64,000 nucleotides of DNA from the NCBI RefSeq assembly GCF_054482595.1, contig NZ_CM137008.1; one strand, written 5' to 3'. Positions 8,082-57,994 of the stretch are shown here, piece by piece. The notes below the pieces were generated by a model. It made no database searches. It was given only the letters and a program-made list of their open reading frames with translations, and was not told the origin of the DNA. The position numbers and the translations under genes are program-made. Each line of letters opens with the position of its first letter. Positions within the stretch are counted from its first letter, which is position 1.

Positions 8082-8172
8082 TAAAAAAACCGACTTCGCG
8101 TCGGTTTTTTTACTGTTCAGCCCTGAGTTGGTGGCTCTGGCTGGAGTGAGATAGCCATCATCTAACGCATCA
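8082..8172 (-). ncRNA. agrB: AgrA/AgrB-family antisense small RNA, dinQ-proximal copy (more complementary to the dinQ 5' leader)
   Basis: Second repeat copy ~232 bp from the first; its complement pairs with dinQ leader 8334-8365 (ctggccggagtgagatagtcgtcatctaac) with about 3 mismatches; same hairpin plus U-run terminator (8088-8112). Confidence 0.45.
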
Positions 8173-36943: not shown

Positions 36944-39747
<2,804 letters not shown>

Positions 39748-39751
<4 letters not shown>

Positions 39752-40692
39752 GCGTGCGCTCCTTCATGACGACGAATGCGCGGGTCCAGCGCGGCGTTGA
39801 GCAAATCGACAATCAAATTACAGACCACAAAAACCACCACCATCATCAGCGTAAAGCACTGGATCACCGGATAGTCACGGTTAAAAATCGCCGACACCGC
39901 ATAGCGCCCGACGCCCGGCCAGGCAAAGATGTTTTCGATAATCATCGTCCCGCCAATCAGTTCGCCGATGTGCATCCCCACGGCGGTGATCATCGGCAGC
40001 GAGGCATTGCGCAGGATGTGGCGACGTTCGGTCTGTTTGTCATTCAGGCCGCGTAGCCGCGCCCAGGTGACGTGACGCTGACCGGCTACGTCCAGCATAC
40101 TGGCGCGCAGCAGCCGCGCGTTAATCGCCAGCGACATAAAGGCAATGGAAACCGCAGGCAAAATGATGTGCTGCCAGCCGCCGTAACCCATCGCGGGTAG
40201 CCATTGCAGATACACCGAAAACGCCATCACCAGTAAAAACGCCAGCCAGAAGTTAGGCATCGACACGCCAAGAAACGCGATGAAACGTACGGCGAAATCC
40301 GGCAGACGGTCACGATGGCGCGCCGCCCAGATACCGAGCGGTACGGAAGTGAGCAGAATTAATACCAGCGCCGCACCCGCCAGTTCCAGCGTAGCAGGCA
40401 GGAAGTTCAGCATATCGTCCAGCACCGGGCGCTGCGTGGCAAATGAGATGCCGAAATCAAGATGCAGCGCCTTCCACAACCAGGTGCCGTACTGCACATA
40501 CAGCGGCTGATCCAGTCCGAGCATGGTGCGGGTAGAGGCCAGCATCTCTGGCGTCGGCGGCAGGTTAGACAGACGCAAATAATCGAGCGCCGGGTCGCCG
40601 GTACCGAGGCGCAGCATCAGAAAAATGATCACCGAGGCGGCGAGCACCATGGGGATCAGCAGCAGAAAGCGGCGTAATACGTAACGCAACAT
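39748..40692 (-). CDS. nikB: Nickel ABC transporter permease NikB
   Basis: 314 aa membrane protein in the nik operon. Confidence 0.95.
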
Positions 40693-42266
40693 TAAGGTTT
40701 CACCGGTTTAATCTGTTCGAACGGAATTTCGGTGGCGATCGGCGCGTAGGGGATGTTACCCAGCTCCGGTTTTGATACCACCATCATTGAGATGTAACTG
40801 ATAGGCAGATAAACCGCCTCGTCATGCAGACGGGTCAGAATGTCGCGATACAGCGCCTGACGTTGCGTTTCGTCATGGGTCGCCAGCACTTCGCCGATCT
40901 CTTTATCAATCAGCGGTTTGTCGGCTAATCCTTGCTGTGCCTGGAAGTCAGCGTGTGACGGTACGCGCATTGAACTGAGGAAGGCGTGTGGATCGTATGG
41001 CGCGCCCCAGGTGCGGTGGAAAATCATGCCAAAACGACCGTCGCGCTGACGAGCATAGATACTGCTCTCTTCTTCGCCAATCAGCGAGACATCTGCGCCA
41101 ATCTGGCGCATATCAGCCTGAATGATTTCCGCCATCGATTTGCTTAACGCATCGGTGCCGATGAACGACAGTTCAATGCGCAGCGGCTGACCATTTTTCT
41201 CGCGGATGTCTTTGCCCGCAGGCAGCGTCCAACCGGCTTTTTCCAGCAACGCTTTCGCTTTCTGCGGATCGTACTGGCGCGGTTTCAGGCCGAGGTTGGC
41301 GTAGGGCACAGAAGGGGCAAACAGGGTGTCGGCGACCTGCTGGGTGCCATACAACGCGTTATCAATCAGCGATTTTTTGTTTACCGCGTAATTAAGAGCT
41401 TCACGTACTGCCAGCTCATTGGTGGGGGCTTTGGCGGTATTGAGCGCCAGCATCACGGTTTCGATCGGCTGTGACAGTTGGGTGTGGTAAGCCGGGTTCT
41501 GGCTAAAGCGGGCGAAGGTATCGAGCGGTAATAACCCTTCGTTTCCGTACAGCAGGTCGATATCGCCAGTTTCAAACGCCACCGCGCGGGTAGTCGGGTC
41601 CGGGATCACGTTAAAAGTGATCTTCTTAATCGCCGGCTTTTCGCCCCAGTAGTTTTCGTTACGGACGAAGACATCGTACTGATTCAGTTTCGATTCCTGC
41701 AAAACCCACGGCCCGGTGCCAATCGGCGCTTTAATCCCGTTCATGGTTTCATGGTTTTTAAACTGCGAGGGGGCGATAAAGCGGAAAGGGCGCGGCAGGG
41801 CCAGTTCTTGCAGGAAAGGATAGTAGGCGCTTTTCAGGGTGATTTGCAGCTCTGTTTTACTGAGTGCTTTGACATCAACAATCTGGTTTGCCAGCTCCAG
41901 CCAGGCGTGACGTTGACGGTTATCGAGCACTGCGCGGAAGTTTTCTGCCGCTGCCTCTGCATCAAACGGTTCGCCGTTGGAGAATTTCACGTCATCACGC
42001 AGGGTGAAGGTCCAGGTTTTACCATCTTCTGAATGAGTCCAGCTTTTTGCCAGCCACGGGATCACCGAACCGTCTGCCTGATATTTCACCAATGGTTCAT
42101 AAACCATGCTCTGGGCGAACATCTGGTTAGGCGTGTAAAGGTGCGGGTTTAGTGGCCCGACATTCACCGGCCAGGCGGTGGTGATTTCATCTGGTGCAGC
42201 GGCATGGACGATAAAAGACGCACAAGCCAGCAGCGCAAATAGAGTGCGGCGGAGTGTGGAGAGCAT
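40692..42266 (-). CDS. nikA: Periplasmic nickel-binding protein NikA
   Basis: 524 aa family-5 substrate-binding protein with signal peptide. Confidence 0.95.
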
Positions 42267-42303
42267 GGTAACCCCAATGGATTAAAATAGATGGCGGAAA
42301 TAA

Positions 42304-42331
42304 GTATGACGATTTTAAGTATTCGTCATAC
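42304..42331. promoter_or_regulatory. NikR operator upstream of nikA
   Basis: Exact GTATGA-N16-TCATAC dyad (gtatgacgattttaagtattcgtcatac), 38-65 bp upstream of the nikA start. Confidence 0.85.
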
Positions 42332-42376
42332 TGATTACCTGTTCTGGATCAATAGATGGGCAGTCGGGTGGGCGGA

Positions 42377-42964
42377 TCAGTTAACTGAATCGATCCATTG
42401 CACACTGTCGGCGGTGAGCGTAAAGGGGGTGGGGGTGCAGATCGCAAGGCTTAAATTTTCTAGCTGACAATGGCTGACTGACAGCGAGGAGTGATAGGTG
42501 CTATCTACGCTGACGATTTGCCAGGCGCTGCCGCCACGCTGTTTAACGATGGCTTCTTTGCGCGTCCAGATGCGCCAGAACATTTCCAGTTGCTGATCAG
42601 GATGCACGGCGTCCATCTCAGCGTGTTCCCCGAGGCTGAATACGGCGTTCGCCAGCCAGCGCCAGTTGGCGCGCGGGCGAATCACTTCGATATCGCAGCC
42701 GACTTCGCCTTCATCACTCAACAGCAGAGCGATATCGTCACCGCTATGGCTTAAGTTGAACCATAGCGGCGTTTCCGGCGCGAATGCAGGTTTGCCTTGT
42801 TCGCCATAGATGATCTCCGGTAGCGGGGAAAGCGTGTGCGAAAGCAATGCACGCCCCGCCAGCCAGCGTTCGCGTCGTGGACCTTGCGGTGCTTGCTCGC
42901 GTAAACCCGGTGGCAGTGGAGCTGCGCTTAAGGTCGAAACTTTCCCCAGAACTATCCGATACAT
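42377..42964 (-). CDS. acpT: 4'-phosphopantetheinyl transferase AcpT
   Basis: 195 aa from MYRIVLGKVSTLSAAPLPPG; the ATG lies 2 nt downstream of the stop of the preceding ketosynthase gene on the same strand; the longer ORF-track start was rejected. Confidence 0.88.
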   Translation of the reverse strand: MYRIVLGKVSTLSAAPLPPGLREQAPQGPRRERWLAGRALLSHTLSPLPEIIYGEQGKPAFAPETPLWFNLSHSGDDIALLLSDEGEVGCDIEVIRPRANWRWLANAVFSLGEHAEMDAVHPDQQLEMFWRIWTRKEAIVKQRGGSAWQIVSVDSTYHSSLSVSHCQLENLSLAICTPTPFTLTADSVQWIDSVN

Positions 42965-42965
42965 A

Positions 42966-44195
42966 TCAGGGCCAACGTTTAATGATGATGGATGTATTAA
43001 TGCCGCCAAAGGCAAAGTTGTTACTCTGCAAAAACTCACAATCAACCTTGCGGGCTTCATGCATGATGTAATCCAGCGCGCCACAATTCGGGTCTGGTTT
43101 ATTCAGGTTTAGCGTAGGCGCAAACCAACCTTCGCGCATCATTTGCAGACTCATCCAGGCTTCGAGCGCGCCACAGGCACCAAGCGTATGACCAAAATAA
43201 CTTTTCAGCGAGGAGAGCGGCACATTATCACCGTAAATGGTTGCTGTCGCCAGACTTTCTGCCATATCACCGCGATCGGTCGCCGTACCATGCGCTGAAA
43301 TATAGCCGATATCTTGTGCGCTTAACCCGGCGATTTTCAGCGATTGCTCCATACAATACTGCATGGTTTCGCGCTGCGGCTGGGTAATATGTGCCGCGTC
43401 GCAGTTAGTCGCAAAGCCGACGATTTCACCGTAAATGGTCGCGCCGCGCGCTTTGGCGTGCTCCAGTTCTTCGAGAATGAGCGTACCTGCGCCTTCACCA
43501 ATCACCAGCCCGTCGCGGTTTTCATCGAACGGTGAAGGTGTGGTTTTCGGCGCATCATTGTGCTGGCTGGTGGCGAAAAGCGTATCAAATACCGCTGCTT
43601 CTGAAGGACATAACTCTTCGGCACCACCAGCAACCATCACCGTTTGATAACCGTGGCGAATGGCTTCCCACGCATAACCGATTGCCTGGCTGCCGGAAGT
43701 ACAGGCGCTGGAGGTTGGGATCACCCGCCCGCGCAGGCCGAAAAAGAGGCCAGTATTAACGGCGGTGGTGTGCGGCATCATCTGCACATAGGTGGTGCCA
43801 GTGATGTTATTGGTGTGCTTTTCCGTCAGCATGGTGGCGAACTCGCTTACCGGGCCGGTACTGCCGGTCGATGAACCGTACGCAATGCCCGTTTCGCCGC
43901 TGGTTAATATCGGATCGCCAATCAACCCTGCCTGCTCTAACGCCAGCTCGCTGGCACGGGTCGACATTTGCGACACGCGGCCCATCGCACGGATACGCTT
44001 GCGGGTGTAGTGCTCCGGTAGCGTGAAATCATCAACAGGCGCGCCAAGCAGGGTGTGCAGCCCGTCGTAGACCTGCCACTCCGGCATTTTGCGCACCGCA
44101 TTTTCATACGCCAGTAAGCGTGCAGAAACGTCCTGCCAGTTTTCACCAAAGGCAGTCACGCCACCCATTCCTGTAATCACTACGCGACGTGTCAT
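42966..44195 (-). CDS. apeR: Beta-ketoacyl-ACP synthase (KAS I/II-like) of the aryl polyene-type cluster
   Basis: 409 aa; active-site Cys in SSACTSGSQ and His motifs HGTAT and GHTLGACG; letter assignment by position in the conserved apeB-apeR order. Confidence 0.75.
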   Translation of the reverse strand: MTRRVVITGMGGVTAFGENWQDVSARLLAYENAVRKMPEWQVYDGLHTLLGAPVDDFTLPEHYTRKRIRAMGRVSQMSTRASELALEQAGLIGDPILTSGETGIAYGSSTGSTGPVSEFATMLTEKHTNNITGTTYVQMMPHTTAVNTGLFFGLRGRVIPTSSACTSGSQAIGYAWEAIRHGYQTVMVAGGAEELCPSEAAVFDTLFATSQHNDAPKTTPSPFDENRDGLVIGEGAGTLILEELEHAKARGATIYGEIVGFATNCDAAHITQPQRETMQYCMEQSLKIAGLSAQDIGYISAHGTATDRGDMAESLATATIYGDNVPLSSLKSYFGHTLGACGALEAWMSLQMMREGWFAPTLNLNKPDPNCGALDYIMHEARKVDCEFLQSNNFAFGGINTSIIIKRWP

Positions 44196-44923
44196 AACAT
44201 CCCTCCGTTGATGGAAATAACCTGGCGGGTGACGTAACCCGCAATATCAGACATTAAATAACTGGCAAGCCCGGCAACTTCTTCCGCCTGGCCCATACGT
44301 TTCATGGGGATCATCGACATTGCCTCTTTCAGAGCGCTCTCTTCCATTTCGATCATCCCGGTATCAATAAGCCCTGGCGCGATGCAATTGACGGTGATTT
44401 TGCGCTTTGCGAGTTCGATAGCCAGCGCTTTTGTTGCGCCGATAATTCCGGCTTTGGCAGCGCTGTAATTCACCTGGCCGCGATTGCCCATTACGCCGGA
44501 AACCGAGGACAGCGTGATGATGCGCCCACCCTGGCGCGCGCCGATCATTGGCATAATGCACGGCTGAATGACGTTGTAGAAACTGTCGAGATTGGTGTGG
44601 ATCACCGCATCCCAGTCGTCATCGCTTAAAGCCGGAAAAGCGGCATCGCGGGCGATCCCGGCGTTACTGACCACGCCGTACCAGGCACCGTGTTGCGCGA
44701 TCTCATGCTCCAGCACTTCCCGACACTGTTCGCGGTTTGCGACGTCGAAACTGAGCAAACGCCCGTTACCCCCGTTGGCGACAATGGCATTCAGCGTTTC
44801 CTGAGCGCCTGTGGCGTCACGGTGATAGTGAACGCCAATGTTAAAGCCGTCTGCCGCCAGTTGGCAGGCGATGGCGCGACCAATGCCTTTGCTGGCACCA
44901 GTAACCAGAACTGAACGACTCAT
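44192..44923 (-). CDS. apeQ: 3-oxoacyl-ACP reductase (SDR, FabG-like)
   Basis: 243 aa; Rossmann TGASKGIGRAIA; catalytic YSAAK. Confidence 0.75.
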   Translation of the reverse strand: MSRSVLVTGASKGIGRAIACQLAADGFNIGVHYHRDATGAQETLNAIVANGGNGRLLSFDVANREQCREVLEHEIAQHGAWYGVVSNAGIARDAAFPALSDDDWDAVIHTNLDSFYNVIQPCIMPMIGARQGGRIITLSSVSGVMGNRGQVNYSAAKAGIIGATKALAIELAKRKITVNCIAPGLIDTGMIEMEESALKEAMSMIPMKRMGQAEEVAGLASYLMSDIAGYVTRQVISINGGML

Positions 44924-45387
44924 CAGGACGCTCCTTGTTGAAACAGGGTGGTAAGTTCTTCCGCGGTCGGCTGGAAGGTGTTAATGCGGCCCGTCGCCTC
45001 GCCGTCGTTGATGCTGCACTCAAAACTGCCGAAGCGATCGTCCTGCATCAGCAGTTTGACGGTAATGGTCAGCGTCTGGCCTGCGGGCAGAATGCCAGCG
45101 GCGCAAAGCAATTCACGCGCGCCCAGTATCATCCCTAACTCAATACTGTTTTTGCCCTGCTGGTGGCGATGCCAGCCAGACCAGACGCCGACGGTTTGCG
45201 CCATCAGTTCAAGGGCAAACCAGCCAGGGAGATTGCCGTCCGGGTCGAGAAACGGTGCCAGTACGCCACTGGGCGAAACCGTCACGCGGCACACCGCGCT
45301 GTCATCGCTGACGCTCACCACGTCTTCCAGCAGTAACATGGGCGCGTCGTGGGGCAGATAAGCGCCGGGGGATAAATAGTGGCTCAC
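44923..45387 (-). CDS. apeP: Hotdog-fold 3-hydroxyacyl-ACP dehydratase (FabA/FabZ-like)
   Basis: 154 aa hotdog-fold protein between the reductase and ketosynthase genes. Confidence 0.65.
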   Translation of the reverse strand: MSHYLSPGAYLPHDAPMLLLEDVVSVSDDSAVCRVTVSPSGVLAPFLDPDGNLPGWFALELMAQTVGVWSGWHRHQQGKNSIELGMILGARELLCAAGILPAGQTLTITVKLLMQDDRFGSFECSINDGEATGRINTFQPTAEELTTLFQQGAS

Positions 45388-46562
45388 GAAACCCTCCCGA
45401 GCAGAATGCTGGCGTTATTGCCGCCAAAGGCGAAGGAATTGGACAGGATCACCGGACGTGCCAGCGGCTGCGGTTTTTCGATAATGCCGCAGGGTGGCAG
45501 CGTGGGATCGCGTGGCGACAGGCTGAAATCTTGGGCGGGCAGCGGTAAATCACGCTGTAAGATCAACATACTGATTGCTGCTTCGGTAATGCCCGCCGCG
45601 CCCAGCGTGTGGCCGGTCAAATGTTTGGTGGAGCTGCACGGTACGCGTTCGCCAAACAGGGCGTTAACCACCATCGATTCAATCTGGTCGTTGAGTTGCG
45701 TGGCGGTGCCGTGCAGGTTGATATAGCCGACGTCATCTGGCGTAAGCTGCGCATCGGTCAGTGCCTGATTAATGGCGCGGATCGCCCCTTCGCCCTGCGG
45801 ATGCGGGGCCGAAATATGGTAAGCGTCACTCGATTCACCAACGCCCAGCAATGCGATGGGCTGCGGTTCGCGGGTTAATAACATCAGCCCCGCGCCTTCG
45901 CCAATGGTGATACCTGCGCGGTCACGACCGAACGGCTGACATAAAGTTGGCGAGAGCGATTCGAGGCTGTGAAAACCGTTAATCGGCATCCGGCTCAGGG
46001 TGTCTGCGCCACCCACAATGGCGGCATCGACCAGCCCCGTCTCGATAAGCCTGCGCCCGCTGATCATCGCTCTGGCGCTGGAGGAGCAGGCGGTTGAAAG
46101 GGTATAGGCCGGGCCGTCGAGCGCCAGCCAGTGGCTGAGAAAACGCGACGGATCGCCAAGTTCCTGTTGTGCGTAGTGCCATGTGGTGCTCGGCAGCCCG
46201 TGGGTGCGCAGGTTAACGTGCGTGTCGCCTTCATGCAGGCCGGAGGTGCTGGTGCCAAGTACAATCGCGATGCGCTCGCGACCATATTTCGCTATAGCGT
46301 CATCAACCTGCGGCTGGAGCTGCGCCAGCGCCGCCAGCAGGATCTGATTGTTGCGCGAGCGATGCGCAGCGAATTTTTCCGGGATAAGCGGAAGCTCGCC
46401 ATCCACGCCAGCCAGGACCGCCTGCGGATGCCCCTGCAACCAGCCTGCGCGTGGGCGCATTCCGGGGGCGACACCGCGAGCCAGGTTGGCTGCGATTTCG
46501 TCAAGATTATTTCCCAGGGCGTTGATCATGCCGACGGCGGAAATATAAATCATATCAGTCAC
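45384..46562 (-). CDS. apeO: Beta-ketoacyl-ACP synthase (catalytic ketosynthase subunit)
   Basis: 392 aa; Cys in LSTACSSS; His in HGTATQLND and GHTLGAAG. Confidence 0.75.
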   Translation of the reverse strand: MTDMIYISAVGMINALGNNLDEIAANLARGVAPGMRPRAGWLQGHPQAVLAGVDGELPLIPEKFAAHRSRNNQILLAALAQLQPQVDDAIAKYGRERIAIVLGTSTSGLHEGDTHVNLRTHGLPSTTWHYAQQELGDPSRFLSHWLALDGPAYTLSTACSSSARAMISGRRLIETGLVDAAIVGGADTLSRMPINGFHSLESLSPTLCQPFGRDRAGITIGEGAGLMLLTREPQPIALLGVGESSDAYHISAPHPQGEGAIRAINQALTDAQLTPDDVGYINLHGTATQLNDQIESMVVNALFGERVPCSSTKHLTGHTLGAAGITEAAISMLILQRDLPLPAQDFSLSPRDPTLPPCGIIEKPQPLARPVILSNSFAFGGNNASILLGRVS

Positions 46563-47139
46563 CTAAGTATTGAATGGTGATGTGGTATTTAAAGACATGC
46601 TGTTCAATGCTGATTGGCACGCGTTTGCCCTTGCGATTCAGATAGGTGATTTCCGTGACCAGCTTGCCGCTGGCGTTACGCAGCTCGCGTTTGTCACCGT
46701 TGTCGCGAAGTGTCCAGCCAGTGGGAAGTTGCGGTTGCCAGGCGCTAATCGGCCAGTGGCTGAGCATTACGTCAGCCAGCACCTGACTTGCGGGCGGCAA
46801 CTGTGGGACGACGATGGATTGCTCGGCGCGTAGCCCTTGCGCATCGTAGGTCAACAGAAACAGGCGAATGCCGACCGACGACAGCCCGGCAAGGGTGATT
46901 TTCTGGTCGTCGGCGTTAAGCATCACTAACAGCGACTGGGTTTTGCCGTTGAAGCTGCCGGTCAACAGTTGCTGGGAATTGACGGCGGGTGAAATCCCTG
47001 GTGCCGGCAGCGTGATGCGCGTGCCAGGTTGCAGCCACGCCTGCGGGCGGCCTTCCTGTTCCGGTTGCGAGTGGCTACAGCCGGTGAGGATAAGCGTAGC
47101 GGTCAGGGCGAGCGCTCGCCAGAATGTGGGTTTGATCAT
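46555..47139 (-). CDS. apeN: Lipoprotein of the aryl polyene-type cluster
   Basis: 194 aa; signal peptide with lipobox LTGC. Confidence 0.6.
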   Translation of the reverse strand: MIKPTFWRALALTATLILTGCSHSQPEQEGRPQAWLQPGTRITLPAPGISPAVNSQQLLTGSFNGKTQSLLVMLNADDQKITLAGLSSVGIRLFLLTYDAQGLRAEQSIVVPQLPPASQVLADVMLSHWPISAWQPQLPTGWTLRDNGDKRELRNASGKLVTEITYLNRKGKRVPISIEQHVFKYHITIQYLGD

Positions 47140-49454
47140 TTTTTTGTTCTCTTTTTATCGGGCATCGCCAGCGGCGAAAGCAGGAAGGCGGTGAAAATAC
47201 CGCTCACCAGCACAATGCCAAAACTGCTGATGGCCTGGGTGGCGCTGAATACCAGCATTCCCAGCGTCAGCAAGGTGGTGAGCATTGCCAGCGTGATCGC
47301 CAGTAGCGAAGTTAATGGTGTACCGCGCGGATTACTGAAAAACAGCGTGTAGTTGATGCCGATGCCAAGCACCAGCACCAGCGCCAGCAGCGAAAAGAGA
47401 TTCACCGCCTGCCCGCTCATCGCCAGCACCGCCAGACCACAACCCAGCGAAAGCACCGAAGGTACAAGGCTGATAAGCCCTTTGCGCCAGCCGAGACGGG
47501 CCACTGCGCCGCAGGCAATCACCGCCAGCGCCACCAGCAACAAGCCGGTTAAGACATAACGGTAAAGCGCGAACAACTCATCAAAGGTGCTTTTGCGATC
47601 AACCCAGGCAATGCCGCAAGGGTAATATGTGGCGATTTCCTGCATCAACGCGCTACTTTTAACCCCTTCAACCGGCACCAGTACGCCGCTTTCGCCGTTT
47701 TCCAGCGTCAGCCACAGCAGACGCCAGCCTTCACTGGCGGGGCTTGCCAGCCATTCATCAACGTTCACTGGCATGGCGTTGAGATCCGGGTTCACTGCCG
47801 TCAGCCCGGCATTTTGCAGCGCTTTTGTTACTGTCGGGGCCGCCGTTTTCAGCAGTTGTAAATCTTCCTCCTGCCGCGCAAGGGAGTTCAGCGGAATGGT
47901 GCGGTAGTTGCTGATAAGCCCCTCTTTTTTCGCATACTCAAGTGAGGCGGTATATTTCTCCAGTCGCCGCAATGTTTGCTGTGGCGAATCGCCGTAAACC
48001 ACAAACCATTTTTGATCGACGCTTTGTCCGGTCAGGGCGGTAATGGCTTTCTCCTGGGTCAGAATATGCTGCGGCAGCGCCTGTAACTGCGAGATATCGT
48101 CATCGACGCGCAGCATTGACATCCCCGCCAGCGAAAACAGCGCCAGCGCGACGGGCAGACCCAGCGACAGTTTTTTATTGCGCCGCCACGCTGCCAGCCA
48201 GCGCAGCATCAGCGCCATCGCCGGAACCGGACGCACCGGCAGGCCACGGCACAGCCACGGATGCCAGAACAGGACGGTCAGACAGGAGGCGCTCAACCCG
48301 ACGGCGGCAAAAATCGCCATCTGGCGAATGCCGGGGAAGGGGGCGAGCATCATAATCAGATATGCCGCCACGGTGGTGAGCAGCGCCAGCAGCAGGGCAT
48401 TGCGTACTTTCGCCAGGCTTTGCCACGGCGAAACGTCGTTGCCGTGCACCATCCGCTCGGTGAGATAATAGAGCGTGTAGTCAGCGGAAATGCCGATAAC
48501 GCTCATGCTCATCACCAGCGTCATCAGGTGTAATTCACCGAAAATCAATAAAGTGGCGACCGTTCCCGCCAGCGCGCCGATGCCGATGGAAATCACGCAA
48601 AGCAGCAACGGGCGCAAAGAGCGGAACACCGCCACAATCAGCAATATCACCCCCAGCAGCGTTGCCACGCCCAGGGTTGAGATATCCTGCTTCGCCTGTT
48701 GGCTGGCGTAATCGCTGTAAAACACCGTGCCGCGCGAAAGCAGCTGCGCCTGCGGGTAACGCGTTTTCAGATCCTTTTCCAGCGTATTCAGGGTCGTGAT
48801 GAGCTGGTGGGTTTGCTGCATATCAAACGACGATCCCGCCAGTTCACCGTGCAGCAGATACCAGTAGTTGCCCTGGGGATCCTGCGTCACCAGCCAGCCG
48901 TCCATCAGCCGCAAACGCTGGCCGTTTTTCGCCATCGCCAGCTGCGAGCCGCGCATTAACATCAGCGGATCGTTTTGCAGCTCCTTGCCGCTTACCCCGG
49001 AGAACGCAGAATAAAGCTGGGAGAGGATCCACTGCGCCTGCGCTTCGCCGCCGTTTTGCAGGCGCGCGCGGGTGTCGGGGTCAATCAGGCCGTTGCGGTG
49101 CTGCCAGAAAAACGCTCCCCACGCTTGCTGGCTGGCGGCATCCATTGGCCCTTTAACGTCGCCGAGCGCAGCGGATTTTTGCAGCAGCGTCAGCCACTCC
49201 TGAGCGACCCTGGGATTAGCCTCTTTACCGGGGCTGACCAGCCACACCAGTTGGCGGTCCAGACGCTGCATAAAGCCGTCATTCAGCGCTGGGGGAATAT
49301 CGCCCATAGCCTGTTTGGGTAACATAGCCAGCACGCTACTGTTCAGCCGTGATTGCGGCAGCAGGATCAGCAACGCCGCCGCCATGACCAGGCAGACTAG
49401 CCCCCATAACAGCGCGGGGCGTTTACTGGGCGGCAAAACGTTGGCGTTCGTCAT
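47136..49454 (-). CDS. apeM: MMPL/RND-superfamily exporter
   Basis: 772 aa; two transmembrane bundles each followed by a large soluble domain; translationally overlaps its neighbours. Confidence 0.7.
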   Translation of the reverse strand: MTNANVLPPSKRPALLWGLVCLVMAAALLILLPQSRLNSSVLAMLPKQAMGDIPPALNDGFMQRLDRQLVWLVSPGKEANPRVAQEWLTLLQKSAALGDVKGPMDAASQQAWGAFFWQHRNGLIDPDTRARLQNGGEAQAQWILSQLYSAFSGVSGKELQNDPLMLMRGSQLAMAKNGQRLRLMDGWLVTQDPQGNYWYLLHGELAGSSFDMQQTHQLITTLNTLEKDLKTRYPQAQLLSRGTVFYSDYASQQAKQDISTLGVATLLGVILLIVAVFRSLRPLLLCVISIGIGALAGTVATLLIFGELHLMTLVMSMSVIGISADYTLYYLTERMVHGNDVSPWQSLAKVRNALLLALLTTVAAYLIMMLAPFPGIRQMAIFAAVGLSASCLTVLFWHPWLCRGLPVRPVPAMALMLRWLAAWRRNKKLSLGLPVALALFSLAGMSMLRVDDDISQLQALPQHILTQEKAITALTGQSVDQKWFVVYGDSPQQTLRRLEKYTASLEYAKKEGLISNYRTIPLNSLARQEEDLQLLKTAAPTVTKALQNAGLTAVNPDLNAMPVNVDEWLASPASEGWRLLWLTLENGESGVLVPVEGVKSSALMQEIATYYPCGIAWVDRKSTFDELFALYRYVLTGLLLVALAVIACGAVARLGWRKGLISLVPSVLSLGCGLAVLAMSGQAVNLFSLLALVLVLGIGINYTLFFSNPRGTPLTSLLAITLAMLTTLLTLGMLVFSATQAISSFGIVLVSGIFTAFLLSPLAMPDKKRTKK

Positions 49455-50028
49455 CGGTCAGTTGCGCTGGCGTCAGTTGATGTTGGGTAAGAGCAATATC
49501 GGTGCGATCGCCCTGTTTATCATTAAGTTGAATGCTCTCCAGATAGGTTTTCCCGGCGAGATCGATGGTGTTGAAAATTTTATCCAGCGGCGTGGTGGTC
49601 GGCGTCAGGCGCAGCGTCCAGCGGCCTTCGCCTTTGTCAGCAAATTCGACGCGGAAGTTTTGTTCCAGCACTTTGCGATCGGCCTGGAACAGCGCGCGCA
49701 GCAGGTGGTTAAACTGGAACATCTGCGGGTTGTTTTCTGCCGTGATGATTTGCGGCGGCTGACCGTTGATCACCTGCACCATGCGTTTATCATCCAGCAA
49801 TAGCTGCATGGGGAACGGTGAGGTTTGATCCCACAATAACCCCTGGTCGCGGGCGATCAACATCTGACCCTGAGATCGCAGCGGCTGCGGCAGATCTTTA
49901 ATCGTCCGGGTTTGATCAAAATGGGCGCGGATCACCGGTTGTTCGGTAAAGCGTTGCTGAAGATCGTCCAGGGTCAGGGCGCTCACAAACGGGCTAATCA
50001 GCAGCGCCAGCAGCGGTAAAAATTTCAT
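49423..50028 (-). CDS. apeL: LolA-like outer membrane lipoprotein carrier protein
   Basis: 201 aa with signal peptide; LolA-like size and fold inferred from sequence. Confidence 0.65.
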   Translation of the reverse strand: MKFLPLLALLISPFVSALTLDDLQQRFTEQPVIRAHFDQTRTIKDLPQPLRSQGQMLIARDQGLLWDQTSPFPMQLLLDDKRMVQVINGQPPQIITAENNPQMFQFNHLLRALFQADRKVLEQNFRVEFADKGEGRWTLRLTPTTTPLDKIFNTIDLAGKTYLESIQLNDKQGDRTDIALTQHQLTPAQLTDDERQRFAAQ

Positions 50029-50447
50029 GGTTTGACTCCCATGCGTTCAAACAGAATATCGGGGCTGACAAAGCACAGTTCGCGACTTTGCTCGTCGACC
50101 GCGACCTGAATGGTGTATCCGGTGGTGGCGCGTTTGCCCGTTTCGGCATCGAAAATCTGATAGCCAATCCGCAGACGGTTTTCGAACTCTTCGATATGCG
50201 CACGCACGCGGATGCGTTGCTCAAAGGTGAGGGCGTGGCGATATTTCACCCGCGCATCGACCACTGGCCACAAATAACCGGACTCTTTCATCTGCCGATA
50301 GCCGTAATTGAACTGGTTGAGCAGCGCCTCGCGGGCCACTTCAAAGTAGCGAAAATAGTTACCGTGCCAGGCCACGCCCATCATATCGACGTCGTGAAAG
50401 GGAATGGTCAGCTCGACTTCAGCGGTAAATCGGGGATCGTTAAGCAC
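50025..50447 (-). CDS. apeK: Hotdog-fold acyl-ACP/CoA thioesterase (4HBT family)
   Basis: 140 aa; …IPFHDVDMMGVAWHGNYFRYFE… is typical of 4HBT thioesterases. Confidence 0.7.
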   Translation of the reverse strand: MLNDPRFTAEVELTIPFHDVDMMGVAWHGNYFRYFEVAREALLNQFNYGYRQMKESGYLWPVVDARVKYRHALTFEQRIRVRAHIEEFENRLRIGYQIFDAETGKRATTGYTIQVAVDEQSRELCFVSPDILFERMGVKP

Positions 50448-50450
50448 CCT

Positions 50451-52127
50451 TTACTCCTTGTCCTGAATTTCCGGCAGTTGCCAGAAATCGAAAAAATTAA
50501 ACCAGTCGAGGGGCGACTGGAGCGCGTAATGTTCCAGACGCGCGGCGTAGTGGTCGATAGCGTTTTGCAGCGCCTGCTGGCGTTCGCCACGCGGCAGTTG
50601 CAGCGGGTCGGCAAAGCTTTCGCAGTGAATATGCAGCTTGCCGTGCTGGCGTAGGGCGAAAATCAGATTCACTGGGCAGCGCAAAATAGAGGCGAGAATA
50701 AACGGCCCCTGTGGGAAGGGCGCAGGCTGGCCCATAAACGGACTCCAGCAGACGCGCCAGTCGCCGCCGCGTTGCGGGGTGACGGCGATGCGGTCACCGA
50801 CAATCGCCACCCATTCGCCGTTATCCAGCTTCTCTTTCAGCAGGATGGCGGTTTCTGGGCCGATATCTGTTACCGGCATCAGGTTAATGCCTGCCTGAGG
50901 AGCCATCTCCTGCATTATCTGTTTAAAGCGTTGGGCGTTTTCGCTAAACACCAGCGCGTTAATGGTTTTGTAGCCCTGAATTTTTGCCAGCGCCCGGCAC
51001 ACTTCCACATCGCCAAGATGCGAGGCCAGCAGCAATTTGCCGCGCGGATCGCGGACGTCAAGCGCCGCTTCTGCGCCTGGCGCAAACAGCACATCACGCC
51101 CCAGTTGTAGCTCGCCGCGCCAGCTGGCGATTTTGTCGAGCATGGCATTACCGAAACGTAGAAAGTGCTGATAGCTGTTGAGTTTTGCCGCCTGTGGTTG
51201 ATGCTGTCGTACACGGGCGAGCCAGTCTTGCGACGCTTTGCGCGCACGAGAAGCAGTGAGCCAGTAGACGCCCACCACCGGGTAAAGCAGCGCGCTAAAC
51301 GCCGTTCTTCCCAGCAGACGCCAGACCAGCAGCATCAGGCGCATTCCCCATAATCCTTTCACTTCACTCTGCCGCGCCCAGTGGCTGGAAGAGCGGCGCA
51401 TCAGCAGTGAAGGAATACGCGGTAACATGCCGAAAAATAGACGCGTGTGCATGAGCGAGATGCGGACGTTATCTTTCAGGGCATCAAAATGCGAAAGCCC
51501 GTCCAGTGGATAGGTGACGCGGGTCGGCACGAAATAGCTGGTGTTTCCCTGCCAGTAGAGGCGCACCATCACTTCAGTGTCGAAATCCATCCGCTTGCCG
51601 ATGGTGGCGTGTTTTGCCAGTTGCAGCGTTGGCGCAACCGGATAAACGCGAAAGCCGCACATGCTGTCTTTCAGTTGCAGGGAGAGCGTTTCGATCCATA
51701 CCCAGACGTGGGTGACCCAGCGCCCGTAAAGCCGTGAGCGGGGGATGGAGTCATCGTAAATTGGCTGGCCGGAGATCAGCGCCGCAGGGTGTTGTTCAGC
51801 GACTGCCAGCAGTTTGGGGATATCTTCAATCGCATGTTGACCGTCAGCATCCACCTGCACTGCATGGCTGAACCCTGCGTCTGCCGCTGCCTGTAAGCCA
51901 CGCATCACTGCCGCGCCTTTACCTGCGTTTTCTGCTAAGCGAATTAAGGTCACGCCAGGCTGTTCGCTAACCAGATTATCCAGTTGCTGTTGCGTGGCGG
52001 CATCGCTGCCGTCGTCCACCACAATACAGGGGAGATTAAATGGCTTAAGACGCGCCAGCACGCCCGGCATCATCGCGCCGTGGTTATAGCAGGGGATCAA
52101 CACGCAGGGAGAAAAGTTTACCGACAT
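50451..52127 (-). CDS. apeJ: Bifunctional family-2 glycosyltransferase / LpxL-like acyltransferase
   Basis: 558 aa; N-terminal GT2 (CVLIPCYNHG…VVDDGSDA), C-terminal lipid A acyltransferase-like domain. Confidence 0.7.
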   Translation of the reverse strand: MSVNFSPCVLIPCYNHGAMMPGVLARLKPFNLPCIVVDDGSDAATQQQLDNLVSEQPGVTLIRLAENAGKGAAVMRGLQAAADAGFSHAVQVDADGQHAIEDIPKLLAVAEQHPAALISGQPIYDDSIPRSRLYGRWVTHVWVWIETLSLQLKDSMCGFRVYPVAPTLQLAKHATIGKRMDFDTEVMVRLYWQGNTSYFVPTRVTYPLDGLSHFDALKDNVRISLMHTRLFFGMLPRIPSLLMRRSSSHWARQSEVKGLWGMRLMLLVWRLLGRTAFSALLYPVVGVYWLTASRARKASQDWLARVRQHQPQAAKLNSYQHFLRFGNAMLDKIASWRGELQLGRDVLFAPGAEAALDVRDPRGKLLLASHLGDVEVCRALAKIQGYKTINALVFSENAQRFKQIMQEMAPQAGINLMPVTDIGPETAILLKEKLDNGEWVAIVGDRIAVTPQRGGDWRVCWSPFMGQPAPFPQGPFILASILRCPVNLIFALRQHGKLHIHCESFADPLQLPRGERQQALQNAIDHYAARLEHYALQSPLDWFNFFDFWQLPEIQDKE

Positions 52128-52501
52128 AGGCGGATCTTCCCGCTACTGGCGGTGTGGCGGGCGTCACCGTCGTGACGCTGATAGCTAAAGCTCAGAATCT
52201 GGCGTTCTTCCTGCCAGTTAAGCGCGAGCGTGACGCGGTTTTCCGGCAGCAACGGAGACTGGAATTTTATGTTCTGAATGGAGTGAAAACGCCAGCCAGG
52301 CGCGAGCAGATTGAGCGCGTAGCTCATCGCCCAGTCGATTTGCGCAACTCCTGGGAGTAATGGTTGCACGGCAAAATGACCGCGAAACCAGAACAGATCC
52401 GCCCTGAGATGCAGAACAATTTCAAGGTGATTCGTTTGTGCCTGATGGCGCTCGATTTCATGGGGCTTCATGAAATAACTCCTGTAATTGCGCATAGACA
52501 C
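52118..52501 (-). CDS. apeI: Hotdog-fold dehydratase (FabA/FabZ-like)
   Basis: 127 aa hotdog-fold protein; second dehydratase-like gene in the cluster. Confidence 0.6.
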   Translation of the reverse strand: MSMRNYRSYFMKPHEIERHQAQTNHLEIVLHLRADLFWFRGHFAVQPLLPGVAQIDWAMSYALNLLAPGWRFHSIQNIKFQSPLLPENRVTLALNWQEERQILSFSYQRHDGDARHTASSGKIRLCR

Positions 52502-53858
52502 GCTTGTTCATACTGTTTACTGGCATTTCATCAATAACGCGCCAGTAACGCGGAATAGCAACTGGCTCCAGCGTCGGGCGCAGTAAACGCCGCCAGGTCA
52601 TTTCCTGGCTATGCCCGCCGCCGTTCTGCCATTGCAGATGAGCTTCGTCATCCAGCACCAGCAAAACGCCTATGCTCTGACGCCCGCCGCGCGTAACGGG
52701 AACTGCCGCCGCCTCGCGAATGCCGTCCAGCGCCAGTAGACGTTGTTCTACTTCCTGGAGTGAAATACGTTTTTCTTCAATCTTAACGATGCGCCCACGA
52801 CGCCCCATCAGATGGAACTGACCATCTTCGCTAAGCTGTAAGATATCGTCGAGTAACAGGCCGTTATCTTCCGCTATCAGCGGTGAAAAGAGGCGAAAGG
52901 CATCGCCTTCGGCTTGGAACTGCATACCTGGGAGGGGTAGCCAGCGGCGTTGCTCTTGTTCGCGGTAACGCCAGGCGATGACGCCGGTTTCCGTGCTGCC
53001 GTAGATTTCATCAGGCCAGACGCGCAGCCAGCTTGCGGTGTGTTGTACATCCTGCCACGGCAGCTCACCGCCAGCAGAGAGAAGCACCTGAACGGGTGGC
53101 GGAGAAAGCTGGGTATCCAGGCGCTTCAAAAATGCCGGGCTGCTGATGAAGATATAGCGATGCTGATGACTCAACGCGGCAAACTGTTCGACATACCAGA
53201 GCATGGCGGCGTGCAGCGGTAATCCCAACGCCATGGGCAGGAAAACACGAAAAGTCAGGCCGTACAAATGCTGCGGCAATACGGAACCGACGACACGACA
53301 ACCCGCCAGACGTGCGCCTAATCGTTCAGCCAGCAGTTCTGCTTCACGATCCAGCAAATGAACAGGTTTAATCACCCGTTTCGGCTGTCCCGTGGAACCG
53401 GAGGTAAACAGCTCGATAAAAGCCTCTGGCGCTATAGCGGCAAAGGTGAAGGATTGTGTCGCGACTTGTGGGGAACTTGCTACCAACAGCCATGAACCTT
53501 GCCAGTTAAGTTCGCTGTCGCTAAGCACACCATCGAACAGTTCACGTTGCTCGTTAAGCTGGATGACACGGTTATGCCCCGGAAGCACCGGTGTTTTTCC
53601 GGCGTGTAGCGTGGCGAGCAGGGCAACGATAAACAGATAGCTGTTCTCAAAGCACAGCGCCCAGCGTTCACCCGGCTGTTGCTGCAAGCGGCAGATAAGT
53701 TGCGCGACATCGTGACGCAAATCGCCCAGCGTCCAGGTGCTTTCGTCCAGCCACGCAATGGGCGTGTCATCAGGGCGTGGCGCAGTCAGCCAGCGTGCAA
53801 GCGGTAAGGTCTGCTTCATGCGCGATCTCTTTTCATCACCTGACGGCGCACCAGCCAT
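52458..53858 (-). CDS. apeH: AMP-dependent synthetase/ligase (adenylating enzyme; putative aryl starter activation)
   Basis: 466 aa; AMP-binding motif FTSGSTGQPK; ORF-track start overlaps neighbours by ~43 nt, so the true start may be downstream. Confidence 0.7.
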   Translation of the reverse strand: MAGAPSGDEKRSRMKQTLPLARWLTAPRPDDTPIAWLDESTWTLGDLRHDVAQLICRLQQQPGERWALCFENSYLFIVALLATLHAGKTPVLPGHNRVIQLNEQRELFDGVLSDSELNWQGSWLLVASSPQVATQSFTFAAIAPEAFIELFTSGSTGQPKRVIKPVHLLDREAELLAERLGARLAGCRVVGSVLPQHLYGLTFRVFLPMALGLPLHAAMLWYVEQFAALSHQHRYIFISSPAFLKRLDTQLSPPPVQVLLSAGGELPWQDVQHTASWLRVWPDEIYGSTETGVIAWRYREQEQRRWLPLPGMQFQAEGDAFRLFSPLIAEDNGLLLDDILQLSEDGQFHLMGRRGRIVKIEEKRISLQEVEQRLLALDGIREAAAVPVTRGGRQSIGVLLVLDDEAHLQWQNGGGHSQEMTWRRLLRPTLEPVAIPRYWRVIDEMPVNSMNKRVYAQLQELFHEAP

Positions 53859-54397
53859 TCACCAGCCATTAATGTTCCCATCAACAAATAAGCAATCATG
53901 CCGTTCCAGGCGGTCCATAACGACATATCGGCATAAAGCGCGGTAAAGAGGGCAATTCCACCGTTAATGATGAAAAAGCCGCACCAGATTTGCGTGACGT
54001 GGCGGGTATAGCGCACGCCCTTTTCCGGGAGGTCTGGCTCCTGCAACCGCGCCAGCCGCTCAACTATCGGCATTGCCGACCACAGCGAACCGCCAAAAAC
54101 CGCCAGCATGACCGCGTTAACCACTACCGGGTAAAACAGCAGTAGCTGGTGCGTTTTCAACATAAAGCTGGCGACACATAATGCGATGCCCACGACAGCG
54201 ACGAGTTGCGTGACGGCTTGTAAAGGCCCCGCCTGGCGACGGGTCTGGCGCAGACGCAACAAAAGCAGCAACGCCATTAGCGGTAACAGCCAGTGCAGGC
54301 CGTTATGCGCTAAGCCAAACCAAATCACAAACGGCCAGGCGAGCAGCAATAATCCAGTCAGCAGCTTAATCATCGGTAGCGAGCGAATGCCCGACAT
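53816..54397 (-). CDS. apeG: Integral membrane protein of the aryl polyene-type cluster
   Basis: 193 aa with several transmembrane segments. Confidence 0.55.
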   Translation of the reverse strand: MSGIRSLPMIKLLTGLLLLAWPFVIWFGLAHNGLHWLLPLMALLLLLRLRQTRRQAGPLQAVTQLVAVVGIALCVASFMLKTHQLLLFYPVVVNAVMLAVFGGSLWSAMPIVERLARLQEPDLPEKGVRYTRHVTQIWCGFFIINGGIALFTALYADMSLWTAWNGMIAYLLMGTLMAGEWLVRRQVMKRDRA

Positions 54398-54401
54398 CAG
54401 A

Positions 54402-54653
54402 TCAGGCTTCTTGTAGCAGGCGTTCTACAGCCTCGACGACATCCTGGACTGTACGCACGGCTTTAAACTCTTCCGGCTTGATTTTCTTACCGGTTTTCTT
54501 TTGCAGGTGCACAATCATGTCAACGGCGTCGATGCTGTCCAGTTCCAGATCTTCGTACAGGCGCGCTTCAGGTTTGATGTCCTGCGGATCGATTTCAAAC
54601 AGCTTAACCAGCAGGGCTGAGACTTCCTGATAGACGGTTTGTTGTTCTGTCAT
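54402..54653 (-). CDS. apeF: Acyl carrier protein
   Basis: 83 aa; phosphopantetheine attachment motif LELDSIDAVD. Confidence 0.8.
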   Translation of the reverse strand: MTEQQTVYQEVSALLVKLFEIDPQDIKPEARLYEDLELDSIDAVDMIVHLQKKTGKKIKPEEFKAVRTVQDVVEAVERLLQEA

Positions 54654-54664
54654 GATGGCTTTCC

Positions 54665-54922
54665 TCAGGCACGTTGCGCAGCAATGAAAGAGGCCAGAGT
54701 GGCGACGGAGAAAAAGTGCTGACGCATCTCTTCGCTTTCCGCAGAGAGCACGATGCCGTACTCATTTTTTACTGCCAGTCCCAGTTCCAGGGCATCGATA
54801 GAGTCCAGCCCTAAACCGTCGCCAAACAGCGGCGCGTCGGTATCGATATCATCAGGCGTCAACTCGTCCAGATTGAGGGTGCTGATGATGAGGTTTTTAA
54901 TTTCCAGATAAAGCGCTTGCAT
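54665..54922 (-). CDS. apeE: Acyl carrier protein
   Basis: 85 aa; motif LGLDSIDALE. Confidence 0.8.
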   Translation of the reverse strand: MQALYLEIKNLIISTLNLDELTPDDIDTDAPLFGDGLGLDSIDALELGLAVKNEYGIVLSAESEEMRQHFFSVATLASFIAAQRA

Positions 54923-55736
54923 TATTTATTCCTGAGAGAGGTAAACAACCTTGTTGTAATTGAAGCAAAAGATGCCGGTTTAACTGCCTTGCTGCCAGCG
55001 CCGGTTCTTGTGAAGTTGCATCGTAAAATTTATTGATTTCAACCCGACCATGGACTGCAACCGTAAAAAACGGCCGGTCAGGTGGAACGTCATACCATTT
55101 ACTTTGTTTATCCAGCAGATGCTCGCTACAGCCGATCGTCACGATGCGTAAATCGCTGGCACAGCGCACGGCAATATTCGCCGCCCCGCGCTGCAGCGTC
55201 ATTTTTTCACCGGGCTTCGTTCGCGTGCCTTCGGGGAAAATCAGGATAGTGTCACCCTGTGCCAGTCGCTGTTGGCAGCGGGGTAACAGGGTTTCAGCTT
55301 CGCTGTTGATTAAATAATCTGCCGCCCGCACGACGCCGCCAAGAAAAGGATTTTTTAACAGCGCGCTTTTCACCAGGCAGTCAGTTTCTGGCATGACTGA
55401 CGCCAGCAGCACGTAATCGATCAGCGTGGGATGATTGGCTACGACGAGGCAACCGCGTTCCTGACGTAAAATTTCAGCGCCATCAATACGATAATCCAGC
55501 ACGCCAAGCCCTTTCGCGACAGTTAAAAACAGGCGAAAACTGGCGGCAATGCTGCGACGCGCCAAACGACGGCGGCGGGAAGTATCCCACACCAAAACTA
55601 ACAATATGTTAAACCACACGACAGAAAGCAGCAGGCCGCCGAGACCAAACAGGGCAAAACATAACCCGGTCATGACCAGTCGCCAGGTCCACTCCAGACG
55701 TGACAGCAGCTTACTCATCCACGGCTCCAGCGCCAC
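54897..55736 (-). CDS. apeD: Lysophospholipid acyltransferase (PlsC/LPLAT family)
   Basis: 279 aa; H(X4)D motif in VVANHPTLIDYVLL and FPEGTRT motif. Confidence 0.7.
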   Translation of the reverse strand: MALEPWMSKLLSRLEWTWRLVMTGLCFALFGLGGLLLSVVWFNILLVLVWDTSRRRRLARRSIAASFRLFLTVAKGLGVLDYRIDGAEILRQERGCLVVANHPTLIDYVLLASVMPETDCLVKSALLKNPFLGGVVRAADYLINSEAETLLPRCQQRLAQGDTILIFPEGTRTKPGEKMTLQRGAANIAVRCASDLRIVTIGCSEHLLDKQSKWYDVPPDRPFFTVAVHGRVEINKFYDATSQEPALAARQLNRHLLLQLQQGCLPLSGINNASALSGN

Positions 55737-56461
55737 TGTACGCGCTCGCCAGGCAGTGAAAATGTGTCCGCATTTTGTAAATAGTGCTGTAAAAACAACA
55801 TGCTTTGCGGCAGTGTTGTTTCATTACCCGCAATGGCTGACTGCGTTTCACATTGCCACTCATCGCCAGCTTCAATCACCAGCGCGACGGCGTACGGCCA
55901 GGTCGGCATTTCTGCGGGCAGTTGTGGATGATAGAACTCAGGCAGAAAGCCATCAAAATCGACCATCAGCACGCGCTGGTATCCCGCTTGTAACAGGCTA
56001 AGCACTTCACACAAACCTTGCTGGAAAGTGTCGCGACCAGCAGAAAGCGATGACGAAACGATCGGCTGTTTGGCCGCAATGGTCAGGTTACCCACGGAAG
56101 AGTTGTGTACTGAAAGTGCAAAGTCGGTCGGAGAAAGCGCCTGTTCGGTTGCCAGTGCATGAACAATGCGGTAATTGCGCTCCAGTTCGCCATGACGACT
56201 GGTATACAAAACGGCGTCTGGCTGATGGCGGCGTAGCATTGCCAGACCGCATTCAACAGCCAGTTTGCTGCCTGAACTGAGGCGGCGGGCGGTCATCATT
56301 GGCAGTTCACTTAATTTTGCCAACGGCGCGGCAGGGTCAATCGCCCACGGCTGGCGCGACCATGCTTGCCATTGCTGCGCTTCGCTAAGTCCAGGCGCCA
56401 GTGCCTGCCAGTCGGTAATATTTAATGTAAATTTCATCAACGCGCGCCCGCGGTAAACCAA
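55715..56461 (-). CDS. apeC: Ketosynthase-like protein lacking the active-site Cys (chain-length-factor-like partner)
   Basis: 248 aa; ketosynthase N-terminal-like fold without a Cys-His-His triad. Confidence 0.6.
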   Translation of the reverse strand: MVYRGRALMKFTLNITDWQALAPGLSEAQQWQAWSRQPWAIDPAAPLAKLSELPMMTARRLSSGSKLAVECGLAMLRRHQPDAVLYTSRHGELERNYRIVHALATEQALSPTDFALSVHNSSVGNLTIAAKQPIVSSSLSAGRDTFQQGLCEVLSLLQAGYQRVLMVDFDGFLPEFYHPQLPAEMPTWPYAVALVIEAGDEWQCETQSAIAGNETTLPQSMLFLQHYLQNADTFSLPGERVQWRWSRG

Positions 56462-56477
56462 AATTATTAAGTGACGA

Positions 56478-57545
56478 TTATTTCTTTTGGCATATCAAAA
56501 GTGTATGCCCAACGCCTAAATTATCGTGGCGCTCTGCTACCTGGAATCCTGCTTTATTCAGATAGTCGTAAAATTTCTCTGCACTATAGAAACGGCTGTT
56601 ACCGTTTGCCATGCAGGTAAAATAAAGTGAGGACGCGTTCAGGCTAAATGATGCTGCTTCAAACCGCTGCGCATCCCAGAACAACTCCATGATGCAAACT
56701 TTTGCGCCAGGCTTCATTACGCTGGCAATTTTGCTGAGTATGCTAATTATTTGTTCGGGTGAAAAACAGTCTAAAAATTGGCTCATCCACCAGATATCAG
56801 CCTCGCCCGGTAATGGGGCATCGCTTAGCATATCCACCGCATGGAAATCTATGCGATCAGAAAAACCTGCATTCGCGATATTTTCTTTCGCTAGTACGAT
56901 TTGTTGTGGCAGATCTAATAACGTCACGGCGATGTTTTCATTGTATTTGCAGCAACGCAAAGCCCACTTACCCGTATTGCCGCCTACATCGTACAATGTT
57001 GTGGGGTTGTTGGCGAATACATAAGGCAGTGCGGCGTTAAATGCGCCATCTGAATAGTAATGATCAAACGCAAACCAGCTTTCACGAGCGGCGTCTGGTA
57101 ATTGCGAAAGTGCCGGATATATCGTCGACCAGTCGCCAAATACTTTTAACCCGGAAGGTTTTCCTTCATTGAGTGAATCGGCGAGGAAGAAGAGCCCCTG
57201 GTAACAGACATCCTGGGTGAAATCCATATTCACGCGAGTCATAGTGTCATGCAGGAGGTAATGACCGATTTTCGCCAGGTAATAAATTCCCTCTTTACAG
57301 GTAATAATTCGCCCGCTTAAGCCCATATCTAACAGAACGCTGGCAGCATATTCGTTGATATGGCTATGTTCGGTGATATCAGCCAGCGTTGCGCCATGTT
57401 TGCCTTGCCGATCCAGATATGAAAGTACACCCGCATTACGTAGGCAGAGTGCTGTTTGAAAAAGCATAGGGGCAAAGGCAATGCGTTGAGCTTCGGTAAT
57501 CGCATCCAGTGCGCTAAGAGAATCCTGTTCGTACATGTTGGGCAC
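56478..57545 (-). CDS. apeB: SAM-dependent methyltransferase
   Basis: 355 aa; class I methyltransferase glycine-rich motif DVGGNTGKWAL. Confidence 0.7.
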   Translation of the reverse strand: MPNMYEQDSLSALDAITEAQRIAFAPMLFQTALCLRNAGVLSYLDRQGKHGATLADITEHSHINEYAASVLLDMGLSGRIITCKEGIYYLAKIGHYLLHDTMTRVNMDFTQDVCYQGLFFLADSLNEGKPSGLKVFGDWSTIYPALSQLPDAARESWFAFDHYYSDGAFNAALPYVFANNPTTLYDVGGNTGKWALRCCKYNENIAVTLLDLPQQIVLAKENIANAGFSDRIDFHAVDMLSDAPLPGEADIWWMSQFLDCFSPEQIISILSKIASVMKPGAKVCIMELFWDAQRFEAASFSLNASSLYFTCMANGNSRFYSAEKFYDYLNKAGFQVAERHDNLGVGHTLLICQKK

Positions 57546-57604
57546 AACCTGTTAAGAGGGAATTAAATTATTATCGGACCGCAACGGCCCGACTTTAGGA
57601 AGAA

Positions 57605-57994
57605 TTATAAATCTGCGCCCGCTGACAAATTCAGTTGAATATCTTTGTCGAGATTGCGGACCCAGCGATTGTAGTTTTTATGAATTTGTCCGCCTGACGC
57701 TTGTAGGTTCTGGCTATTTTCATAATTGATATCGTAGCTGGATGCCGTGTAGTTAATGCGTATTTCCGCTGAATGATCGCGTGACTGTTGACGTGCTTTA
57801 ATTATGCCTTGTCCGGCTTCGGACATAATCCATTTGCGTTCAACGCCAGCTTTCAGAATCGCTTTTTTCACTTGTTCCTGGGTATGACCAGCGCTGACGG
57901 TTGAGTGAACCTGATCAATTGGCGCAGTACGCGCGCAACCTGCTAAAGCACCCACAACAGCAATAGCCGCAAACCATTTCATGTAATGTCTCAT
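57605..57994 (-). CDS. Small lipoprotein, possible first gene of the biosynthetic operon
   Basis: 129 aa; signal peptide and lipobox LAGC; AT-rich 380 bp promoter-like region upstream. Confidence 0.55.
   Translation of the reverse strand: MRHYMKWFAAIAVVGALAGCARTAPIDQVHSTVSAGHTQEQVKKAILKAGVERKWIMSEAGQGIIKARQQSRDHSAEIRINYTASSYDINYENSQNLQASGGQIHKNYNRWVRNLDKDIQLNLSAGADL

Follow-up and report, generated by a model that had tools for sequence, protein, structure and literature searches.

The 110-bp region between acpT and nikA (42267-42376) in the window, the whole stretch of 64,000 nucleotides that was analysed, contains an inverted repeat of the form GTATGA-N16-TCATAC, and the question raised by this locus is what reads that repeat and how it is placed relative to the nikA promoter. 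An initial annotation had proposed that it is the operator of the nickel-responsive repressor NikR, situated 38-65 bp upstream of the nikA start codon and serving the autoregulation of a nik operon that ends with nikR itself. Alternatively, the repeat could act as an RNA hairpin behind acpT, could belong chiefly to a regulator other than NikR, or could be a palindrome of no function. Based on the comparisons described here, the dyad is almost certainly the NikR operator inside the FNR-dependent promoter of the Escherichia coli nikABCDE-nikR operon, where nickel-bound NikR would exclude RNA polymerase.

Sequence and position of the dyad

Read on the plus strand, the 28-mer GTATGACGATTTTAAGTATTCGTCATAC matches GTATGA-N16-TCATAC with both hexamers exact and a spacer of 16 bp. 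The nikA ATG (42266-42264) lies on the minus strand and the dyad 38-65 bp upstream of it, so that the half-sites, the spacing and the distance were all as the initial annotation had given them. The interval to which it had assigned the operator does contain the dyad, but is equal to the entire acpT-nikA intergenic region, and the dyad itself occupies only the 28 bp listed in Table 1. The minus-strand orientation of the operon and the dependence of its promoter on FNR had gone unmentioned.

The exact dyad occurs once in the window. Its analytic chance expectation is about 0.004 (64000/4^12), and it never appeared when the 64-kb window was shuffled 100 times with its dinucleotides preserved. A pattern scan of the window also returned a match with two mismatches at 30593, which was dismissed as chance, 1.7 such matches being expected. 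Pairing outward from the centre gives perfect arms of 10 bp around a centre of 10 bp, a longer repeat than had been described before. The centres of the half-sites are 22 bp apart, or about two helical turns, so both half-sites would lie on the same face of the DNA.

Table 1 Features of the nik locus, in window coordinates.
Feature	Coordinates	Strand	Basis
NikR operator, palindromic 28-mer	42304..42331	.	Exact match; nikA-sense reading GTATGACGAATACTTAAAATCGTCATAC
Promoter-distal half-site, GTATGA in nikA sense	42326..42331	.	Sequence and Escherichia alignment
Promoter-proximal half-site, TCATAC in nikA sense	42304..42309	.	Sequence; contains the predicted transcription start
Extended perfect inverted repeat, AGTATGACGA-N10-TCGTCATACT	42303..42332	.	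Pairing outward from the centre
Putative -10 hexamer TAAAAT in the operator spacer	42312..42317	-	TAnAAT conserved in position
FNR box TTGATCCAGAACAG, centre 42345.5	42339..42352	-	8/10 match to TTGAT-N4-ATCAA
Predicted nikA transcription start (A)	42305	-	FNR box centre minus 40.5; fits the -10 position
Shine-Dalgarno-like GGGG, 5 nt before the nikA ATG	42272..42275	-	Sequence; conserved within Escherichia
nikA, periplasmic nickel-binding protein	40692..42266	-	TIGR02294, 840 bits (cut-off 393); RefSeq annotation
nikB	39748-40692	-	NCBIfam equivalog/subfamily model above cut-off; RefSeq
nikC	38918-39751	-	NCBIfam equivalog/subfamily model above cut-off; RefSeq
nikD	38154-38918	-	NCBIfam equivalog/subfamily model above cut-off; RefSeq
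nikE	37351-38157	-	NCBIfam equivalog/subfamily model above cut-off; RefSeq
nikR, ribbon-helix-helix nickel-responsive repressor, 133 aa	36944-37345	-	PDB identity, NCBIfam, RefSeq
acpT, upstream co-directional neighbour outside the system, bounding the intergenic region	42377..42964	-	NF007676, 396 bits; RefSeq

The nik operon and its repressor

All six nik products scored above the curated cut-offs of their NCBIfam models (equivalog or subfamily), and the RefSeq gene names were taken from the annotation of an identical E. coli record. The longest minus-strand open reading frame to the left of the dyad, with 524 codons' worth of residues (524 aa), is nikA. The last gene of the operon, nikR, starts 5 bp past nikE, and its product is identical at 133 of 133 residues (100%) to the proteins in PDB entries 1Q5V, 2HZA, 2HZV and 3OD2, of which 2HZV is the operator complex. 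It carries the residues of the beta-ribbon that contact DNA (R3, T5 and T7) as well as the square-planar nickel ligands H76, H87, H89 and C95.

As nikR sits within the operon, its own expression would be partly autoregulated. The earlier proposal of autoregulation by a NikR encoded at the operon end thus agrees with the gene order, but the autoregulation is probably partial, since nikR is said (De Pina and colleagues, 1999) to have a weak promoter of its own in addition.

Predicted architecture of the nikA promoter

Within the intergenic region TTGATCCAGAACAG fits the FNR consensus best, and Myers et al. (PMC3688515) list an FNR site at -40.5 with a ChIP-seq peak at the nikA promoter. If the centre of the box is set at -40.5, transcription would start at 42305, an A within the promoter-proximal half-site. 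With that start, TAAAAT (42317..42312) would fall at -12 to -7, the canonical position of a -10 hexamer, and the operator would span approximately -26 to +2, enclosing both the -10 hexamer and the start; the leader would be 39 nt long. The centre of the FNR box would also be near the -41.5 position of class II sites, a fit that is partly circular as the start was itself derived from -40.5. We infer from this arrangement that the promoter is a class II promoter activated by FNR and that the operator covers its positions from approximately -26 to +2. A generic sigma-70 scan of 42000-42700 found no promoter, which is expected of a class II promoter that depends on an activator and has no -35 hexamer, and which lends no positive support.

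Identity with E. coli K-12 and conservation within E. coli

The window is part of an E. coli chromosome, and the 110-bp acpT-nikA region is 100% identical to positions 3613557-3613666 of E. coli K-12 MG1655. Compared with the K-12 nikABCDE operator (Chivers and Sauer 2000; PDB 2HZV, Schreiter et al. 2006), the intergenic sequence, NikR and the order of the operon are all the same. The regulatory region is without any difference from K-12, while 4 substitutions were counted over 401 bp of coding flank in acpT. The dyad is the prototype NikR operator, with a regulatory region and a repressor identical to those studied experimentally in K-12, and it had been described before (Chivers and Sauer 2000; Schreiter 2006). 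The interpretation given by the initial annotation is supported, both by this identity and by the nik genes identified downstream.

Across complete E. coli genomes, the 421 bp around the site had matches of 95-100% identity in 5425 of 5426. The 110-bp region was at least 95% identical in 5425 E. coli genomes and at least 99% identical in 5198 of those, and a 40-bp query centred on the operator was 100% identical in 5267. About 126 of the 5425 genomes are without the exact 28-bp word and would thus carry a substitution somewhere in the central part of the operator. In an alignment of the window with seven sequences, five from divergent E. coli and two from other species of Escherichia, all twelve half-site positions were invariant.

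The first spacer base beside the distal half-site (window 42325) is C/G in Escherichia and T in most other genera (GTATGATGA). It is this C/G pair that extends the perfect arms to 10 bp in Escherichia. E. coli strain JNE21-009 reads GTATGAT rather than GTATGAC at this first spacer base, and GTATGAT is shared by most other genera.

Conservation across species

The cross-species set held one genome per species with NikA, giving 80 loci (1.11 Mb in total) in which NikA identity ranged from 99% to 49%. Within 400 bp upstream of nikA the dyad was exact in 52 loci, had one mismatch in 22 and two mismatches in one; in the remaining 5 of 80 no dyad with up to two mismatches was found within that distance. 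The 16-bp spacing is the same in all 74 orthologous sites that are exact or have one mismatch, and the distance from the dyad to the estimated nikA start codon is 9-42 bp except in two loci with insertions (L003 and L004). Elsewhere in the 1.11 Mb there was no dyad with one mismatch or fewer, except the operator of L003 itself, which is displaced by its insertion. TCACAC, on the promoter-proximal side, is the commonest half-site variant in other genera. Overall, the dyad is found before nikA across Enterobacterales, alpha-proteobacteria and Halomonas.

When the loci are aligned on the dyad, three conserved blocks stand in fixed register, namely TTGATC 21 bp upstream, the half-sites and the spacer TAnAAT, while the flanks diverge. 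TTGAT stands equally far from the dyad in 67 of the 75 loci. Among the 75 sites the spacer hexamer is TAAAAT in 52, TAGAAT in 10, TACAAT in 5 and TATAAT in 2, and nearly all of the 69 enterobacterial operators have TAnAAT.

In most enterobacterial loci nikR is the last gene of the operon, about 5 kb downstream. In four alpha-proteobacterial loci (L068-L070 and L073) nikR is instead divergent and upstream, in contrast to its place at the operon end here. Five alpha-proteobacterial loci (L067-L070 and L073) and the Halomonas locus L075 keep the dyad upstream of nikA, while the FNR half-site is absent. In the alpha-proteobacterial loci a TTGAC-like -35 hexamer replaces the FNR half-site. To judge from these sequences, the alpha-proteobacterial and Halomonas loci may apply the same repressor logic to an FNR-independent promoter. 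NikR boxes upstream of nickel transporters in Proteobacteria were reportedly described by comparative genomics in 2006 (Rodionov and colleagues). Other proteobacterial NikR boxes have the GTATGA-N16-TCATAC architecture directly upstream of nikA, as is the case here, and PMC7055735 cites nikA of Brucella abortus as an example of a NikR box.

The two loci with insertions were both from Escherichia. Escherichia sp. MOD1-EC7003 (L004, 6352-6480) has an insertion of about 112 bp in the nikA leader, in the interval between operator and ATG, which displaces the dyad to 150 bp upstream of nikA. This insertion (…GACTGAATCCCCAGGCGCTTAC…GTGACTGAGGTG…) resembles an ERIC/IRU repeat. Its 3' end, AGTATGACGAG, has the same letters as the operator arm AGTATGACGA. 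In Escherichia sp. E1V33 (L003, 6032-6470) about 435 bp are inserted between an intact operator and promoter and nikA, and the insertion includes 3.1 tandem copies of an 81-bp unit. Its right flank bears a degenerate copy of the operator end (AATCGTCGCCATACTTATTTC), and pieces of the insert are found 1-6 times per E. coli genome, for example adjoining thiQ.

Alternative explanations of the dyad

Since the end of acpT, a gene of the same orientation, is 45 bp upstream, the inverted repeat could also form an RNA hairpin that terminates or attenuates read-through from acpT, either alone or in addition to a role as operator. As RNA the 10-bp arms do fold (-16.5 kcal/mol, z = -5.1), with UUAUUUCC behind them, yet a z-score of this size arises from any palindrome, the loop is 10 nt long, G-C pairs make up only 4 of the 10, and the U-tract is poor. 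A scan of 42000-42700 for intrinsic terminators found nothing, and an Rfam scan of the whole window gave no RNA family near the site, its only hits being two AgrB sRNAs at 7850-8165. Between species, acpT was present within 6.5 kb upstream in only 10 of 80 loci while the dyad lies beside nikA in 74 of 80. In addition, the half-sites are kept as letters, beyond mere complementarity, without any swap to compensatory pairs, and this is the signature of recognition by a protein rather than of an RNA structure. The hairpin or terminator reading was rejected on the ground that the dyad tracks nikA and not acpT across genera, and it is very unlikely even as a secondary function.

A protein other than NikR could equally be proposed as the main reader of the dyad, with NarL (in nitrate repression), FNR and Fur as candidates and the NikR match as incidental. 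A perfect NarL-type heptamer, TACTTAT (TACYYMT), lies on the minus strand at 42306..42300 and overlaps the proximal half-site and the predicted transcription start, with only about 0.04 such matches expected per 110 bp. A 2009 paper (PMC2718512) places nikA under NarL regulation and notes that no NarL site had been found there. However, the heptamer spans one end of the dyad only, just 22 of the 75 orthologous sites retain its pattern, the FNR box is a distinct conserved element upstream of the dyad, and the exact match over 12 positions co-occurs with nikR across 80 species. Binding of NikR to GTATGA-N16-TCATAC is, moreover, published. It is thus highly improbable that the dyad is chiefly the target of another regulator, and NarL binding would at most be an added layer and not a replacement. 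Perhaps the unmapped NarL target at the nikA promoter coincides with the promoter-proximal half-site of NikR, which the heptamer hints at but which we consider rather doubtful. If so, NarL responding to nitrate and NikR responding to nickel would repress through a handful of shared base pairs, where they might either compete or cooperate. A chance palindrome without function, for which one could argue only that short inverted repeats are generally frequent in AT-rich DNA between genes, is scarcely conceivable. It was excluded by the shuffles (0 of 100) and by the fixed position of the dyad before nikA from Enterobacterales to alpha-proteobacteria and Halomonas. Nothing in the evidence gathered contradicts the explanation of the dyad as a NikR operator.

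Proposed mechanism of repression

Under anaerobiosis FNR switches on the import of nickel, which supplies the [NiFe]-hydrogenases, and NikR switches this import off once nickel is sufficient. According to PMC7055735, which refers to Chivers and Sauer (2000/2002) and to Bloom and Zamble (2004), Ni(II)-NikR binds GTATGA-N16-TCATAC in the E. coli nikABCDE promoter with nanomolar affinity. In the 2HZV structure, as described in PMC6332059, the nickel-bound NikR tetramer is in the cis form and each DNA-binding domain touches one half of the two-fold symmetric operator. Nickel-dependent binding by NikR and nickel-dependent repression of nikA are published for the K-12 sequence, to which that of the window is identical.

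In the NikR tetramer the C-terminal domains make up a central nickel-binding core, with a ribbon-helix-helix dimer at each end. Ni(II) fills high-affinity square-planar sites made of H87, H89 and C95 together with H76 of the neighbouring subunit, and in the nickel-loaded state the beta-ribbon of each dimer (R3, T5 and T7) enters the major groove at one GTATGA half-site. Judging by position, NikR bound in this way would cover the -10 hexamer TAAAAT and the transcription start and would keep RNA polymerase out because it does so, turning nickel import off. When nickel is absent the operator would be vacant, and under anaerobic conditions FNR at TTGATCCAGAACAG (around -40.5) would activate transcription, so that expression of the nik genes could supply nickel to the [NiFe]-hydrogenases.

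Comparison with the Helicobacter pylori system and significance

According to the literature, NikR sites in H. pylori have a different and more degenerate consensus, and NikR both activates and represses. The H. pylori operators (ureA, nixA and others) are likewise two-fold symmetric, and the repressor is of the same family, with a ribbon-helix-helix and a nickel-binding domain, PDB 2CA9 and its relatives being matched at E ~1e-17. The site described here is of the enterobacterial type, as opposed to the H. pylori type.

For nickel homeostasis the locus adds nothing conceptually new, and its value is only that of a positive control, in which the operator of a well-characterised metalloregulator was recognised from raw sequence. 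The known promoter architecture was recovered in full, with the FNR box, the -10 hexamer within the operator and NikR at the operon end. The footprint across genera illustrates the fixed register that the half-sites, the -10 hexamer of the spacer and the FNR half-site keep throughout Enterobacterales.

Other features of the window

Although the regulatory region equals that of K-12, the gene content of the window points to a non-K-12 strain as host. The window has the chuA/chuS genes for heme uptake and a hicA/hicB toxin-antitoxin pair (at 1-2200 and 30455-31086) and, beyond acpT, a large cluster of the fatty-acid/polyene type. Directly upstream of acpT, at about 42966-58000 on the minus strand, lies a long co-directional cluster resembling a fatty-acid synthase, with ketoacyl-ACP synthases, FabG2, dehydratases, two ACPs, an MMPL transporter, a LolA-like protein, a glycosyltransferase and an AMP-binding protein. 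This cluster resembles an island of the aryl-polyene type. Two copies of the AgrB antisense sRNA (Rfam RF02891, 108 and 91 bits) are present on the minus strand at 7850-7933 and 8081-8165, where they adjoin the type I toxin gene dinQ, as is known for E. coli.
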